Source: Nitrospirota bacterium (GTDB lineage Bacteria > Nitrospirota > UBA9217). From it: DNA of 64,000 nt. Where the stretch lies: assembly GCA_963840455.1 (NCBI GenBank), contig CAWIYV010000010.1, positions 192,001-256,000 on the forward strand, in the 5' to 3' direction. Within the stretch, counting starts at the first letter, position 1. The number at the start of each line of letters is the position of its first letter. Shown here one piece after another: positions 16,900-30,134 of the stretch. The position numbers and the translations under genes were made by a program. Under the pieces are notes generated by a model that saw nothing but the letters and a program-made list of their open reading frames with translations, searched no databases and was not told the origin of the DNA.

Positions 16900-17061
16900 T
16901 TAATGGCCGCTCGGGAAGAACGTAGCGCTCACCCAGTACAGGATGATCAGCGACGCCACCCCGATGCCGATGCTCCACCTGATCAGCTGCATTTCCACCG
17001 GCAGGAGCGGCTCATATTCCATCTTTTTCAGTTCTTCTGATAATTTAGGCTTGTCAGCCAT
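16900..17061 (-). CDS. Small single-TM protein downstream of the YeiH exporter
   Basis: GGAGG SD, MADKPK...EYEPLLPVE..LIRWSIGIG; 53 aa. Confidence 0.72.
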   Translation of the reverse strand: MADKPKLSEELKKMEYEPLLPVEMQLIRWSIGIGVASLIILYWVSATFFPSGH

Positions 17062-17084
17062 GTGGTATCCCTCCTGTGTGTGGT

Positions 17085-18986
17085 CTATCCTACCAGCGGC
17101 GGCTTCACGCCATGGAAGAAGAGCCATGAAATGAACAGGCCGATCCAGATGATGAACCCGAACAGCGCAACGACATACACGACCATCAGCTTGCCGATGC
17201 CTTCTTCCCAGAGCTTCTTGAAGTCGGAAACGATGCCGATGGTAAAGAAGGTGAACACGAAGAACAGCACCCGGAACACGTTACTTGAGCTGGTCGCCGT
17301 ACCCGCCGCCGCCATGGTCGCTTTGGGCCCCTTGATCGAGTCGCCGAGGGTCTTCAGACGGTCTTTTGCGGCCGCAACCTTGGCCTGCACCGCCGGGTCG
17401 GGTTTTGTCGATGCGAGCTGCTTTTCGGCATCGGCGATCTCCTGCTTCATTGCCTTCATCTCCTTGTCCGCCGCGGAATTCGGCTTCGGCTTTTGGTACT
17501 TGGCTTTCAGACCATCCAGTTTGGCCTTGGCAATGGTGATCTTCTCCTGCAGCGCGGCCTGGGCAGCCTGCGACGCGGACAGCTGCTTTTCCGCTGCGGC
17601 GACCTCTTGCCGTATGGCCTTCGACTCCTTGTCCACCGGGCTGATCGTCGTCGAGGCCGGCCAGCAGATCACCAGCAGAATGAAGAACGTGAGGGCATAG
17701 CCGATGACGAACTTGGGGAACCGGTACCAGATCTCGATAGGGCTGGCCTTTTGTCCCGGCTTGCATTCGATCTTCGCGCACCAGATGATGGCCAGTATGA
17801 ATGCCCAGATGCCGATAAAGATGTCGATGAACATCTTCACGGTCGTGGCCGTCATCGTCATCCAGCCTTCCTGATAATTGATGCCTGCCTCAAGCGACTT
17901 GGCGCGGATAAGGGCATCGGTGATCGCGCCGGAGGCCACGGCCCCACCGTCGGTCTTGACCGCGAGGCCCATCCAGGCGCCGGCTACCAGTGGTTCCTTC
18001 CAGAGGAAGGTCTGGGCAGCGAAGGGAAGGATGACCATCTCCACCACCGCAAAGATCACGACCAGCGACGAGACCATGATGGGCACTACCGGACGGGCCC
18101 GGATGGCGCCGCCCGTGGCGATAGCCGCGGACACGCCGCAGATCGAGATGCCCGAGGCGAGCGGCGCTGCCCATTCCCTGCTGAACTTGAAGTACTTCCG
18201 GGCCATGTAGTACACGACGGCCCAGTAGATCAGGTATGCCTCGATGATGGCGCAGAGACCGCGGAACATGATGTTACTTGCGAGCGTGAATGACTCTGCC
18301 GCCTTGAGACCCAAGGCCGCGCCCATGATGACGATGGCGGTCTTGATGTACAGCTCAGGCCGCGAGGCCTCCTTGAGCTTCTCGGAAATTTTCGGGAAGA
18401 AGTTCCCCACGATGAGACCGGCAATGAGCGCAATAATGAAGCCTGACTCTCCCGTCAGGCTGAGCGACCAGGGGATCTTGAACGCGCCGAGCTTGTCCTT
18501 GGTCGCGGCAATGTACGCATAGTGGCCGGCGAACCAGCAGGCATAGCTGGCAAAGAAAATGACTGTGAACCCGATCGCAAACTTCTTGACATCGGACCCC
18601 ATGAGCATTGCGCCGATGCTCATGATCGCAAGCATGGCAAGGTAGGTTAACAGGAGCGAGGCAAAGCCGGAGAGGCCGGCCTTCTCGTACTTGTCCCCGA
18701 CCTTGAGGCTTGCCGTGTCCTCCTTGACCATAACCGTTTCTTCTTTGCCGTCGGCCTTCTTGAGGGTCAGTTTCTTCCCGTCGATCTTGATGATCTCGCC
18801 CTTTACCGTCTGGTACGTCTTCGAGACGGGCGACATGGCCTTCGCAGGGTCCATCCATACCGAGGTGTTGATCCCCCATCCCAGGAAATCGTTGCCGCTG
18901 AAGGTAAACAAGGAAAGCACAAAAATTGCCAGACCGAGCCATAATGCCAGCCAGTCCTCACTCAGGCCCTTCGCTTTTTCCTCCAT
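17085..18986 (-). CDS. YeiH / putative sulfate exporter (PSE) family transporter with soluble insertions
   Basis: SEDWLALW, ASGISICGVSAAIA, GAWMGLAVKTDG, RFPKFVIG. Confidence 0.82.
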   Translation of the reverse strand: MEEKAKGLSEDWLALWLGLAIFVLSLFTFSGNDFLGWGINTSVWMDPAKAMSPVSKTYQTVKGEIIKIDGKKLTLKKADGKEETVMVKEDTASLKVGDKYEKAGLSGFASLLLTYLAMLAIMSIGAMLMGSDVKKFAIGFTVIFFASYACWFAGHYAYIAATKDKLGAFKIPWSLSLTGESGFIIALIAGLIVGNFFPKISEKLKEASRPELYIKTAIVIMGAALGLKAAESFTLASNIMFRGLCAIIEAYLIYWAVVYYMARKYFKFSREWAAPLASGISICGVSAAIATGGAIRARPVVPIMVSSLVVIFAVVEMVILPFAAQTFLWKEPLVAGAWMGLAVKTDGGAVASGAITDALIRAKSLEAGINYQEGWMTMTATTVKMFIDIFIGIWAFILAIIWCAKIECKPGQKASPIEIWYRFPKFVIGYALTFFILLVICWPASTTISPVDKESKAIRQEVAAAEKQLSASQAAQAALQEKITIAKAKLDGLKAKYQKPKPNSAADKEMKAMKQEIADAEKQLASTKPDPAVQAKVAAAKDRLKTLGDSIKGPKATMAAAGTATSSSNVFRVLFFVFTFFTIGIVSDFKKLWEEGIGKLMVVYVVALFGFIIWIGLFISWLFFHGVKPPLVG

Positions 18987-19250
18987 AGCTACCAGTTCCC
19001 CCTTTCCATAAGAGTATCGGCTTCAGAACATCGGTGAAGCACGATCCGTCCCCGGGACGGCAGACCTGCCGCACTGCATCACCTCCCACCGGACATGTCG
19101 TCACTGCATGTTGGTCTTCGCAAGACTCTTTGTCTCGGAACTTTCGTAGTTATGATATCGGTGCCGATGTTTGTCAAGGTCATTATCGAGGCATGTCACT
19201 CATGATGAGACCTCCCCGATCAGTTCCTGAACATCATCGGGCTTGGCGTG

Positions 19251-27922: not shown

Positions 27923-29264
27923 CACGATCCTGCTGGTGGATGATGAACAGAACATCCTGCGCGTGGTCTCCACGACGCTCACGGCGGAACGATATGAGGT
28001 CGTCACTGCACAGTCGGCCGAGGAGGCCATGGAGCGATTCGGTCAGAACGGCTTCGACCTGGTGATCACGGACCTGAAACTCCCGGGGCAGAGCGGCCTC
28101 GACCTCCTGGCATTCATCAAGTCCCGGAAGCCCGATGTGCCGGTCATCGTGATCACGGCCTTTGGTACGATCGGGAACGCCGTGGATGCGATGAAGAAAG
28201 GGGCGTTCAACTACCTTACGAAGCCGGTCAATCCCGACGAGCTGCTGACCGTGATCCGCGAGGCGATGGAGAAGTACGAACTGAAGCGCGAGAACCGGCT
28301 GCTCAAGACCGAGCTCCGGCAGACCTATGCCTTCGGCAATATCATCGGAAAGAACATCGCCATGCAGGAGATCTTCGACACCGTTCGCATGGTCTCGAAG
28401 ACCCAGTCCAGCATCCTGATCATCGGCGAGAGCGGAACGGGCAAGGAACTCGTCGCACGGGCCCTCCATTACGAGTCCGACCGGTCGGAGCAGCCCTTCG
28501 TCACCATCGACTGCGCGGCCATCCCCCCGGAAATCATGGAAAGCGAGCTCTTCGGGCACGAGAAGGGTGCGTTCACCGGCGCTCACGAGCGCAAGACCGG
28601 CCTCCTGGAGCACGCCAACGGCGGCACGGTGTTCCTCGACGAGATCGGCGAGCTGGATCTGCAGCTCCAGAAAAAGCTGCTCCGATTCCTCCAAGAGCGG
28701 GAGATTCTTCGCGTGGGCGGCACCGCGCGGATCAAGCTGAACGTTCGTATCGTGGCGGCCACGAACAAGGACCCGGAGCGGGAAGTGCAGGAGAAGCGCT
28801 TCCGGGAGGACCTGTACTACCGCCTGAATGTGGTCATGATCCGGATGCCGTCGCTCCGGGAGCGAAAGGACGATATCCCGCTCCTGGTCCATCATTTCCT
28901 CGAGAGGCTGAACCGGATCGAGGGTAAGCTTGTGAAGGGCTTCGAGGACAATGCCCTGGAGGCGATGCTCGCTTATGACTGGCCGGGGAACGTGCGCGAA
29001 CTGGAGAACGCCGTCGAGCGGGCGTACATCCTCTGCCCATCCATCACCATCGGCCTGAAGCACCTGCCCACGAAACTGGCCGCCCTGGGCCGGGGCGAAC
29101 GGGAGGCGGTCGACGAGATGAACCTCCTGGAGACCGAGAAGCGGCTGGTCGTCCGCGCCCTCACGAACACCTCTTGGAACCAGAGCAGGGCGGCCGAGGT
29201 TCTCGGCATTTCACGCAAGCAGCTGCGGACCAAGATGAAGAACTTCGGGCTCCTGCCGCAGTAA
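27912..29264 (+). CDS. sigma54-dependent NtrC/AtoC-family response regulator
   Basis: REC (LVDD, TDLKLP); [29 protein letters not shown]; Fis-type HTH. Confidence 0.95.
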
Positions 29265-29429
29265 GCATCTCCTTGACCGACCGCTGCCCGTTCCCTTGCA
29301 CTGCGTACGGCTGCCCTTCCCCTCGCGTCCATGCGATCCGCTTCGTTTCATCGAGGTCTTCCCCTCCTTGACAGTCTGCAGAAGGGCGGCTATCTTTTAA
29401 CCATCCTTTTCTGCGAGCGGAGGCCCGCC

Positions 29430-30134
29430 ACGAAACTGTCCATCGTCCTTTTCTTTCTCGTCCTGTTCGCCATGATTGTCGCGGCAGGGTGCGCCGGAAC
29501 GTGGATCACCCAGCCCATCGAATCGTTTAGGCCCCCTGAAATGGTCCCGCCCTCTTCGGTCTGTCAGCCCTGCCACCAGGATCAGTTCGACTCATGGAAG
29601 AAGACGCGGCACGCCGACGGACAGAGGATGGCGAAGATCCCGGTGCCGGAACTGCATGAGTGCGGCGCCTGTCATGCCGATCTCAATGCCCACGCTGCGG
29701 ATCCGCAGGGGAAACGCCCCCCCCGTGTGGCAACGATGACCAAAACCGAGAAAAACACGCTCTGCGGGAAGTGCCATTACAGTCAGACCCTCTTCGGCGG
29801 CAGTGCCATCAATCCTCACGGCAAGCACTCGCTCTTCGCGAACGTCGCGCTCGAAGGCCAGCCGAAGCAGATCGCCTGCCTCGACTGCCACTCCGGCCAC
29901 AAGGGCGGGTCGGACATGCTGGTTCGTATCAAGGCGCACATCTGCTATGAATGCCACACCTCTGCCATGGTCACGATGGGCATCCTGTTCCAGATCCCCA
30001 ACTGGCTCACCAACGGCTACATGTGCCAGGCCTGCCACACGGTCCATGGCGGTTCCGACAGCGAACGGTGGGGCCGCATGGGCGTGGGCTTCTGCGTTAT
30101 CTGCCACTTCGTCGGCGTGGCTCTTGTCGATTGA
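29430..30134 (+). CDS. Seven-heme cytochrome c lipoprotein (apparent ACG start)
   Basis: 7 CxxCH (CQPCH, CGACH, CGKCH, CLDCH, CYECH, CQACH, CVICH); lipobox AAGC; GGAGG 6 nt before ACG. Confidence 0.82.
   Translation, partial: TKLSIVLFFLVLFAMIVAAGCAGTWITQPIESFRPPEMVPPSSVCQPCHQDQFDSWKKTRHADGQRMAKIPVPELHECGACHADLNAHAADPQGKRPPRVATMTKTEKNTLCGKCHYSQTLFGGSAINPHGKHSLFANVALEGQPKQIACLDCHSGHKGGSDMLVRIKAHICYECHTSAMVTMGILFQIPNWLTNGYMCQACHTVHGGSDSERWGRMGVGFCVICHFVGVALVD

Follow-up and report, generated by a model that had tools for sequence, protein, structure and literature searches.

How many of the genes at positions 16900–30134 of a 64-kilobase (kb) stretch of Nitrospirota DNA act as one system, and what might that system be for? 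The stretch, called the window below (Nitrospirota bacterium UBA9217, GCA_963840455.1, contig CAWIYV010000010.1, positions 192,001–256,000), contains three plus-strand regulatory genes for a tandem PhnD/PtxB-type binding protein (PhnD2), a sensor histidine kinase and a sigma-54 activator. On the minus strand there are two operons, one encoding a TusA-like protein and a GT-C-fold membrane protein, the other a YeeE-family protein, two microproteins and a rhodanese. The initial annotation of this block, made from the sequence alone, saw in it a complete and undescribed circuit that senses thiosulfate or polysulfide, mobilizes and imports sulfane sulfur, and exports sulfite or sulfate. All of the genes that it named were recovered from reading frames, Pfam and NCBIfam, at or near the same positions. 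The overall reading reached here, to which we give a probability of roughly 0.6, is that the regulatory genes and the two operons constitute one sigma-54 regulon for sensing and for the induced capture and import of sulfane sulfur.

Promoters, enhancer sites and regulators

Candidate sigma-54 promoters were scored over the 11 consensus positions of TGGCAC-N5-TTGCW, with a match of at least 10/11 counted as a hit, and candidate enhancers over the 10 positions of TGTCC-N6-GGACA. Only two sites on either strand of the window reach the promoter threshold, and each faces its operon. P1 (TGGCACTGGTTTTGCT, 24509–24524, minus strand) matches at 11/11 positions and lies 25 nucleotides (nt) upstream of the start of the TusA-like gene; P2 (AGGCACGAACCTTGCT, 22404–22419, minus strand) matches at 10/11 and lies upstream of yeeE, the two sites being 25–45 nt upstream of start codons. 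The exact core GGCAC-N5-TTGC has four copies in the window, and the two besides P1 and P2 are within genes. When one mismatch is allowed, the promoter pattern occurs at chance level, with 19 sites observed and 17.2 expected.

Upstream of P1 is the palindrome TGTCCCGTCCGGGACA (24577–24592), a 10/10 match to the enhancer consensus and the only one in the window without a mismatch. Its center and the first base of the -24 element are 60 nt apart. P2 is preceded by a second and weaker pair of enhancer-like sites, each with a score of 8/10: a proximal site (22471–22486), in which TGT-N10-ACA is kept and whose center is 59 nt from the -24 element, and a distal site (22503–22518) that is centered ca. 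91 nt from the -24 element and overlaps the stop codon of the GT-C gene. The positions of this pair agree with those of the corresponding sites in relatives. Both promoters and the P1 palindrome had been picked out in the initial annotation as the control elements of the two operons; the weaker pair had not.

Relatives of the locus were collected by scanning a one-genome-per-species collection (185,579 species) with a YeeE alignment, which gave 319 relatives, and 80 loci were fetched. Counts are taken over the loci whose DNA extends far enough (testable loci), hence their differing denominators. Of the 77 loci with enough DNA in front of yeeE, 40 have a promoter of at least 10/11 in the 300 nt before this gene, against a background in the same loci of 109 sites in 2.4 megabases, or 0.014 per 310 nt. 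These promoters are concentrated in the Nitrospirota (26/30) and the Desulfobacterota (12/13) – 38 of 43 for the two groups together – with 2/7 in other or unclassified loci and none in the 27 Pseudomonadota loci. A linked kinase and activator follow a similar distribution, being found in 13/17 Nitrospirota, 5/5 Desulfobacterota, 1/3 other and 1/14 Pseudomonadota loci. The sole Pseudomonadota case (L076) has only ca. 29% identity and so is probably not orthologous, which leaves no linked activator in the Pseudomonadota loci besides this hit. In a tree of 73 YeeE sequences, made by a quick method only and with a midpoint root for drawing, one side of 45 rows includes all of the loci with regulators; the 28 rows of the other side are 26 labeled Pseudomonadota, the unlabeled L013, and L024, which is labeled Bacteroidota.

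Orthologs of PhnD2 (54–73% identity) are encoded in 9 of the 80 loci, always with the kinase and the activator following them. In these nine loci, which have all three regulatory orthologs (L002, L003, L006, L008, L009, L018, L042, L067 and L077), the spacing between enhancer and promoter can be compared. At the yeeE promoter, L003, L006, L008, L009, L042 and L067 have the exact TGT-N10-ACA form 57–59 nt upstream, and L009, L042 and L067 also have a second site at 90 nt. L018 has two sites farther off, at 126 and 157 nt, and in L077 no P2 of at least 10/11 was found. P1-like promoters are also found in the PhnD2-type loci, with exact TGT-N10-ACA sites at 60–62 nt in L006, L009 and L042 and versions with one or two mismatches visible in L002, L003 and L008. 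Across the wider sample, 16 of the 40 loci bearing the yeeE promoter have an enhancer match of at least 8/10 centered 57–61 nt upstream, for which the chance is ca. 0.002 per locus (binomial, equal base frequencies). Three loci with a longer form of the gene cluster have a third sigma-54 promoter ca. 100 nt before a separate rhodanese gene (L002, 14782; L042, 17682; L064, 17615), which places the rhodanese in this regulon.

Because the promoters and a shared enhancer motif are kept at fixed spacing in orthologous loci, the conclusion that the two sigma-54 operons belong in one unit with the regulatory genes is supported by sequence conservation, in agreement with the link drawn by the initial annotation. 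It is very probable that the wiring consists of the activator acting on TGTCC-N6-GGACA sites ca. 60 nt, and often also ca. 90 nt, upstream of the two -24/-12 promoters.

The regulatory operon begins with phnD2 (24670–26316, plus strand). Its product of 548 amino acids (aa) has a hydrophobic segment at residues 7–25 and two PF12974 stretches (333 bits), and the solved proteins nearest to it in sequence are PtxB, PhnD, HtxB, AioX and ArrX. The tandem PhnD family comprises at least 364 clusters at E ≤ 1e-20, and with the exception of one automatic 'TtrS' label the source names in these clusters are generic ones for phosphonate-type binding proteins. PhnD2 is proposed to be a secreted, periplasmic co-sensor. 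The final 14 nt of its gene overlap the start of the kinase gene (26303–27922, plus strand), whose product has, by Pfam, an sCache_3_2 domain bracketed by two hydrophobic, putatively transmembrane segments, followed by a split HAMP domain, HisKA and HATPase.

The HAMP domain of the kinase is split by an insert of 56 residues (26972–27154, plus strand) with seven to eight conserved cysteines, in the pattern CWERLxC-x4-CPxYG-x3-CW-x3-GTFC-x15-C-x2-C. This insert is present in 9/9 kinases of the PhnD2 type and in two Desulfobulbaceae kinases (L073, L078), and it is absent from the 13 other linked kinases, which have no PhnD gene. No Pfam family was found for it in a search to E 10, which returned noise only. 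The third gene (27912–29264, plus strand) encodes an NtrC-type activator with PF00072 (REC), PF00158 (241 bits), PF25601 and PF02954 (HTH_8). Its translation contains GAFTGA, and its NCBIfam matches, AtoC and NtrC at ca. 458 bits, are under the equivalog cut-offs.

The regulatory operon has a sigma-70-type promoter, TTGCAT-N18-TATAAT (24635–24664, plus strand), that was read from the sequence and is not among the sites listed by a simple promoter scan of the window. It ends 5 nt before the phnD2 ATG. The layout TTGCA...TATAAT is kept in L002, L003, L006, L008 and L009, where it ends 5–6 nt before the ATG and there is no Shine-Dalgarno sequence. Given this short distance and its conservation in five loci, the mRNA of the regulatory operon is probably leaderless. 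Every minus-strand gene in the block has a Shine-Dalgarno-like sequence upstream, as read from the sequence.

The target genes and the wider cluster

The first gene behind P1 encodes the TusA-like protein (24256–24483, minus strand; the start codon is at 24483, not 24484). It scores 30.7 bits to PF01206, above the cut-off of 28.6 but over residues 22–75 only, and 28.4 bits to the NCBIfam TusA model, for which the cut-off is 78. In place of the canonical LDVTGYVCPHPQ it has LDVQGIGGLRVR; where canonical copies in the alignment read GYVCPHP it reads GIGGLRV, and the cysteine of the G-x-x-C-P-x-P motif is absent. The initial annotation of this gene as tusA-like thus holds for the fold and not for the sulfur-carrier cysteine: a TusA-like protein without the CPxP cysteine cannot carry a persulfide at the canonical site. 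The cysteine is also missing from the upstream TusA copies in 8/8 of the PhnD2-type loci aligned (all but L003), and is kept in two loci without a PhnD gene.

The second gene of this operon (22499–24205, minus strand) could start at a GTG at either 24205 or 24166. A structure model of its product (predicted local distance difference test, pLDDT, 93.7; predicted template-modeling score, pTM, 0.93) was used for a fold search, in which the top match was ArnT (5f15; E = 1.1e-7, template-modeling (TM) score 0.51/0.54), followed by STT3, PglB and ALG12, with a probability of 1.00. To the PMT_2 family the window protein scores 25.9 bits, just under the cut-off of 26.1, and its orthologs score 33–46 bits. 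A profile search reached STT3A at E = 4.6e-5, and when the window protein alone was searched by sequence against the PDB there was no match at E ≤ 1. R41 and D44, which come directly after the first helix, do not vary among 54 sequences, and D44 is the acidic residue of the first outer loop. By its predicted structure, the protein is a GT-C-fold glycosyltransferase-like membrane protein that is nearest to ArnT. In 54 of 64 testable loci, the 2.5 kb before yeeE contain a gene for a homolog.

The operon behind P2 begins with yeeE (20924–22357, minus strand), for which the GTG at 22357 was chosen as the start from the upstream GGGAGGGA and from the lengths of homologs, 475–477 aa. It encodes a long-form YeeE/TsuA-family protein of 477 aa (PF04143, 130 bits) that misses the NCBIfam equivalog cut-offs. 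C57, C125 and C426 are conserved without exception in 73 sequences and correspond in the alignment to C22, C91 and C293 of TsuA, which we take to be the essential cysteines of that protein. At E ≤ 0.001, the structure model of the window protein (pLDDT 81.9) has no fold matches other than the TsuA entries 6leo, 6lep, 8k1r and 8j4c. Across phyla (Nitrospirota, Desulfobacterota, Pseudomonadota, Rokubacteria) the long YeeE is 70–91% identical, and column identity in the alignment averages 74%. Such conservation is unusual for a membrane protein; the neighboring GT-C protein is just 33–57% identical.

After a gap of 24 nt, with no cysteine-bearing TusA partner in between, yeeE is followed by the gene for microprotein 1 (mic1; 20702–20899, minus strand; 65 aa) and then by that for its paralog microprotein 2 (mic2; 20367–20576, minus strand; 69 aa). 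Mic1 has one hydrophobic helix, GY, PPF-E-G and a C-terminal DYY-NLYK, and mic2 has TG-EPGYFEA-EAGGYG. In both, an invariant glycine precedes a tyrosine that is invariant or nearly so, and the tail is charged and rich in tyrosine. Neither has a Pfam family (searched to E 10, noise only) or an NCBIfam family. Their conservation is nearly complete, with mic1 directly after yeeE or tusA in 75/75 testable loci and mic2 present in 72/75. Among 1.84 billion proteins there are 104 microprotein representatives, all of at most 161 aa; none of them is a fused form within a longer protein, which is weak evidence that such forms do not exist. The microproteins are probably channel subunits or periplasmic helpers. 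In some loci the pair is replaced by one longer microprotein with GGYG repeats (L052, 11722–12033; L072, 11719–12030; L080, 6240–6623; L074, 4152–4442; L064, 11720–11974).

The last gene of the operon encodes a two-domain rhodanese (19300–20310, minus strand) with two PF00581 stretches, an N-terminus like a signal peptide and a C-terminal coiled-coil tail. Among solved structures it is closest to the thiosulfate sulfurtransferases 3hwi and 3aax (E = 1e-27). YCQTG[TS]RST is the sole form of the catalytic loop, which lies in the second domain, among the variants listed, which cover 40 of 50 aligned sequences, and the gene is present in 41 of 46 testable loci. The operon ends in an intrinsic terminator (19256–19281, minus strand) with an 11-pair stem, including 8 G-C pairs, followed by TTTTTT; the initial annotation had put a terminator close by, at 19251.

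In relatives these genes are part of a larger cluster, whose recurrent order was determined by tblastn and Pfam in the 80 loci. It begins with TusA (or a TusA-like protein), proteins of 90 aa and 55 aa, a DsrE-like protein of 100 aa, GT-C, YeeE, TusA, mic1 and mic2, and continues with a universal stress protein (Usp), a flavoprotein (NF005548, 430 bits), an HpnJ-like B12 radical-SAM protein, a radical-SAM/SPASM protein, a GT2 and the rhodanese. TusA follows yeeE directly in 70 of 75 relatives. The DsrE-like gene is found with two small genes upstream of it (39/57 and 38/57 loci); for the flavoprotein, the B12 radical-SAM protein and the GT2 the counts are 31, 35 and 36 of 46 testable loci.

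By size, order and a weak DsrE hit in Pfam, we infer that the 90-aa, 55-aa and 100-aa genes correspond to DsrEFH type II as described in the accessible parts of PMC13293266. The 90-aa protein returned only noise from Pfam to E 10. An identification of the microproteins with Chp1 and Chp2 of the published yeeE-tusA-dsrEFH-II (YTD) cluster was rejected; as far as the accessible text goes, Chp1/Chp2 have been reassigned as DsrF/H-like parts of DsrEFH type II (PMC13293266), and in the relatives their counterparts lie before GT-C as two genes of their own, of 90 aa and 55 aa.

The sequence between the microproteins and the rhodanese is where most long forms have their inserts (e.g. L042, 12146–16471; L014, 13448–17518; and many other loci). 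These inserts include a UDP-galactopyranose-mutase-like flavoprotein (NF005548) and an MftF-like GT2, and together the Usp, flavoprotein, radical-SAM and GT2 genes suggest a sugar-based product tied to the sulfur genes.

The window has neither a DsrE-like gene nor a canonical TusA: when the 90-aa, 55-aa and 100-aa proteins of L042 (F90, H55 and E100) and its downstream TusA were used in tblastn, the only match in the window was the upstream TusA-like gene. The absence of DsrE reported in the initial annotation is thereby confirmed. By gene content, the window is a trimmed copy of the cluster in which the TusA-like protein, GT-C, YeeE, mic1, mic2 and the rhodanese are kept, and L008 has the same short form. 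A different reduction is seen in L001, the closest relative (91% YeeE identity). It has lost all of GT-C but the last 27 codons (9771–9851), with unrelated sequence upstream of this remnant, and has kept TusA and Usp as well as the yeeE promoter and its enhancer motif. What is kept in every form is the channel, both microproteins and, where the contig reaches it, the rhodanese. A core that survives all of these losses points to a minimal working unit.

Proposed sulfur import and its alternatives

In the mechanism proposed, a leaderless sigma-70 transcript would give PhnD2, the kinase and the activator. PhnD2 would capture a periplasmic oxyanion, for which thiosulfate or a polythionate/polysulfide appears the likeliest candidate, and would dock on the Cache domain of the kinase, while a redox or metal signal from the cytoplasm may enter through the Cys-rich module of the kinase. 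The kinase would phosphorylate the activator, which would then act at the TGTCC-N6-GGACA sites. P1 would drive the cysteine-less TusA-fold protein and the ArnT-like GT-C enzyme, and P2 the long YeeE/TsuA-type channel, the two single-helix microproteins and the secreted rhodanese. From what is known of these families, the rhodanese may act on thiosulfate or polysulfide in the periplasm and draw off sulfane sulfur, and the channel may pass sulfur inward over its three cysteines; the GT-C enzyme may glycosylate a periplasmic acceptor. The sulfur theme of the initial annotation is supported by the fold of the channel and its TsuA-aligned cysteines, by the rhodanese loop, and by the TusA- and DsrE-like genes of relatives. 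That sulfur is what the system imports is a reading whose chances stand a little above even.

Several observations weigh against this account of the locus. We infer the ligand, the direction of transport and all of the activities. With no canonical TusA or DsrE in the window there is no cytoplasmic sulfur acceptor visible, and for a trimmed copy of this kind the acceptor must be encoded elsewhere; rpoN is not in the window either. The enhancer-like sites at P2 are weak when taken alone, since the 19 sites of at least 8/10 in the window are at chance level. In L001, the closest relative, the promoter and the motif remain, but GT-C is lost and no regulator is seen on the contig. The relatives share ancestry, so the counts of loci measure conservation and are not independent events. 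The best NCBIfam score of the YeeE-like protein is to YedE/FdhT (134.5 bits) and that of the relatives' TusA is to YedF (49 bits), all below the cut-offs. Finally, according to the accessible parts of PMC13293266, thiosulfate did not persulfidate recombinant TusA, DsrEFH type II or DsrC from cable bacteria.

The scores to YedE/FdhT and YedF bear on a different substrate. In a system for selenium or tellurium oxyanions, PhnD2 would sense selenite or selenate, and the YeeE/YedE-like channel and the rhodanese would handle selenium. The channel does score higher to YedE/FdhT than to TsuA (86 bits), the downstream TusA of relatives is indeed best matched by YedF, and there are weak matches of the rhodanese to ExtH of a selenite/tellurite operon (44.5 bits) and of the binding protein to a putative selenate binding-protein family (76.6 bits). 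All four scores are far under the curated cut-offs, however (350, 79, 200 and 250 bits), and the sole fold matches of the channel are structures of TsuA, a thiosulfate-uptake protein. No selenium-specific gene was seen in the annotation of the window, and the DsrE-like genes in 39 of 57 relatives belong to a sulfur relay, as far as the accessible text of PMC13293266 describes it. Selenium is therefore an improbable substrate. If the substrate is thiosulfate, the short form might import it for biosynthesis and not for energy metabolism. This would explain why the window lacks DsrEFH, the canonical TusA and the accessory enzymes of its long-form relatives, and it has a precedent in YeeE/YeeD of E. 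coli, which takes up thiosulfate for assimilation (accessible parts of PMC13293266). Among the mostly housekeeping genes of the 64 kb, the only part of the genome covered here, there was no dsr, apr or sox gene. Against an assimilatory role, the same regulator, promoters and motif appear to control long forms with DsrEFH type II in L003, L006, L009, L042 and L067. We also know of no assimilatory uptake system that has a dedicated secreted rhodanese and a GT-C enzyme as parts, and such a role is considered rather unlikely. The GT-C enzyme would be the main effector if the regulon served envelope modification or signaling and the YeeE-like protein acted mainly as a signal transducer, as SoxT1B, another YeeE-like protein, serves in signaling (accessible parts of PMC11582611). 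The near-constant presence of GT-C would fit, as would the GT2, flavoprotein, radical-SAM enzymes and universal stress protein that many relatives add. However, L001 has lost GT-C and still has the same promoter in front of its channel, microproteins and rhodanese, none of the accessory sugar enzymes is in the window, and the three cysteines of the channel are invariant. This leaves an envelope or signaling role very unlikely.

The full circuit of the initial annotation, in which sensing, mobilization and import are joined by export of sulfite or sulfate through YeiH and by participation of a heptahaem cytochrome, depends on the genes that flank the block. The YeiH/PF03601-family membrane protein (17085–18986, minus strand; 633 aa) scores 75 bits to PF03601 (cut-off 24.5), but only 35.5 bits to TIGR00698, far under the cut-off of 232.6, and sulfate export by the YeiH family is itself putative in the NCBIfam name. 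YeiH-like genes do recur near the cluster, after the rhodanese in L018 and L046 (in L008 a PF03601 gene has this position), and so does a partner, the single-helix protein of 53 aa that is encoded downstream of YeiH in the window (16900–17061, minus strand; it is followed by a terminator at 16874–16851, and Pfam to E 10 gave noise only). Homologs of this partner lie beside YeiH-like genes in L018, L023, L060 and L068. The cytochrome gene (29331–30134, plus strand) starts 67 nt after the activator gene, and a scan of the plus strand found no terminator-like site in the gap. Its product is, as initially annotated, a probable c-type lipoprotein with seven CXXCH motifs, and it matches multihaem families in Pfam. 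Other evidence speaks against a part for these genes in the circuit. YeiH is a separate transcription unit behind the strong terminator at 19281–19256, and no sigma-54 site or enhancer motif was found upstream of it in the window. YeiH-like genes are found in 14 of 80 loci, in varied positions and on both strands, and a homolog of the cytochrome in L009 only (1/80). The block contains no oxidizing enzyme that would make sulfite or sulfate. A place for YeiH and the cytochrome in the regulon is not supported, they are treated here as neighbors, and the full circuit has little chance of being correct.

Returning to the regulon for capture and import of sulfane sulfur, a more specific form of it can be imagined. 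YeeE, the microproteins, the rhodanese and GT-C would be one unrecognized envelope machine that imports zero-valent sulfur or polysulfide, the microproteins would be periplasmic sulfur handles that are possibly glycosylated by GT-C, and PhnD2 would be the first sensor of the binding-protein type to couple such sulfur to a sigma-54 output. This is speculative, and the odds are well against it.

A few further features of the region were noted. The YeiH-like protein has a coiled-coil insert of ca. 110 residues (residues ca. 442–554), which is missing in the 61%-identical ortholog of L018, and a long N-terminal extension. The sole in-frame ATG of the cytochrome gene would give a 74-residue leader before a lipobox-like cysteine (29331–29480), whereas the L009 ortholog has a normal MKK...VGC lipoprotein signal, so the start codon in the window may be non-standard. 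The gene for RNase G comes after the cytochrome. Housekeeping genes, among them dnaK-dnaJ-grpE and those for the arginine and lysine pathways, lie outside the block, and the G+C content of the window is ca. 60%. A scan of 14000–33000 against Rfam gave no match within 16900–30134; it identified a c-di-GMP-I-GGC riboswitch (RF03167, 70.4 bits, gathering score 59) at 14511–14590 on the minus strand, upstream of a DUF4382/CarboxypepD_reg gene (13084–14301). Between this riboswitch and the block is a 525-aa frame (14860–16437, minus strand) with a TerC/YjbE-family membrane domain (TIGR03717, 220 bits) and a cytidylate-kinase-like domain (PF13189), homologs of which are encoded close to the loci L008 and L046.

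Comparison with known systems

The channel resembles TsuA of the TsuA/TsuB (YeeE/YeeD) system in its fold (TM 0.74 over 6leo), its Pfam family and its three aligned cysteines. It differs in its length, at 477 aa being ca. 140 residues longer than the solved chains of 328–339 aa, with ca. 100 of the extra residues between the two aligned halves, and it has only 22% identity to TsuA. In the accessible parts of PMC11582611, the only lengths described for the YeeE family are 330–350 aa and ca. 130 aa. The window also has no cysteine-bearing YeeD/TusA partner and instead has two obligatory microprotein neighbors. The likeness of the GT-C protein to ArnT consists of the GT-C fold, the PMT_2 family of its orthologs and the invariant Arg and Asp after the first helix; it differs in a TM of ca. 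0.5, an identity of 13%, the lack of an NCBIfam family and the lack of a partner GT2 in the window.

As a set, the target genes are most like the YTD cluster of Nitrospirota and Desulfobacterota, which groups sulfur-relay genes with the gene for a YeeE/YedE-family membrane protein (PMC13293266, PMC9751629, PMC9676032 and PMC13490349, each in its accessible parts); DsrEFH type II and TusA have been reported there to form a sulfur relay in vitro (PMC13293266). The relatives of the window locus carry tusA after yeeE as well as DsrE-like genes. The window differs from the YTD cluster in having neither DsrE-like genes nor a canonical TusA.

In the accessible parts of the YTD literature there is no mention of sigma-54 control, a linked sensor, GT-C, the microproteins or a secreted rhodanese, and the words 'glycosyltransferase', 'rhodanese' and 'sigma' each have 0 occurrences in the text of PMC13293266 that was available. 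Literature searches for YeeE with glycosyltransferase, rhodanese or radical SAM in Nitrospirota, and for YedE/TusA or YeeE with sigma-54/RpoN, found nothing relevant; nor did one for a Cys-rich or iron-sulfur insertion in the HAMP domain of a histidine kinase. The description of the system as undescribed is accordingly true in part, within the literature available: the sensor, GT-C and the microproteins were not found in it, while the target genes are a trimmed form of the published, extended YTD cluster (PMC13293266, PMC9751629) and the design of the sensor matches AioXSR (PMC7533571).

The comparison matters because the YTD cluster has been debated, in the sources seen, as a marker of either sulfur disproportionation or reverse sulfur oxidation, and those sources are silent on how the cluster is controlled and on the roles of its other neighbors. 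Transferred to a reporter host, the sensor, enhancer and promoter set could show to which sulfur compound the cluster responds. Since the cluster is found in 319 stretches of the 185,579-species collection, the answer would apply widely, to bacteria of groundwater, sediment and vents. The cluster also ties a GT-C enzyme to sulfur trafficking in at least four phyla.

On the regulatory side there are two known designs to consider. TtrS and ThsS sense tetrathionate and thiosulfate, respectively, through a PhnD-like periplasmic domain. Domain 2 of PhnD2 matches the TtrS model at 51 bits, the cut-off being 750. In TtrS the PhnD-like domain is fused to the kinase, and the NCBIfam model spans both, whereas PhnD2 is a separate protein and the periplasmic part of the window kinase is sCache_3_2. 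To our knowledge, TtrR and ThsR are not sigma-54 activators.

The closer likeness is to AioX-AioS-AioR (AioXSR), a published three-component system made up of a PhnD/PtxB-family binding protein, a kinase and an RpoN-dependent activator (accessible parts of PMC7533571). Systems of the AioXSR type are described in PMC7533571 and PMC5908839, as far as these were available, as switching on a nearby -24/-12 promoter. As in AioXSR, and also in ArrXSR and ArxXSR by the same sources, a PhnD/PtxB-family periplasmic protein, a kinase and a sigma-54 activator are co-encoded in the window; the likeness is drawn from the gene order and overlap, from the place of AioX and ArrX among the nearest solved relatives, and from the occurrence of the triad in nine loci. 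The differences are that the window binding protein has two PhnD domains and 548 aa, compared with 266–305 residues in the AioX and ArrX chains, that its kinase has sCache_3_2 and a Cys-rich HAMP insert, unlike the descriptions of AioS-type kinases, and that its targets are sulfur-trafficking genes, where AioXSR targets arsenite oxidase. Judged by its genes, the regulatory side of the locus is an AioXSR-like design that is new in its tandem binding protein and its kinase insert, and its set of targets is a trimmed form of an extended YTD cluster.

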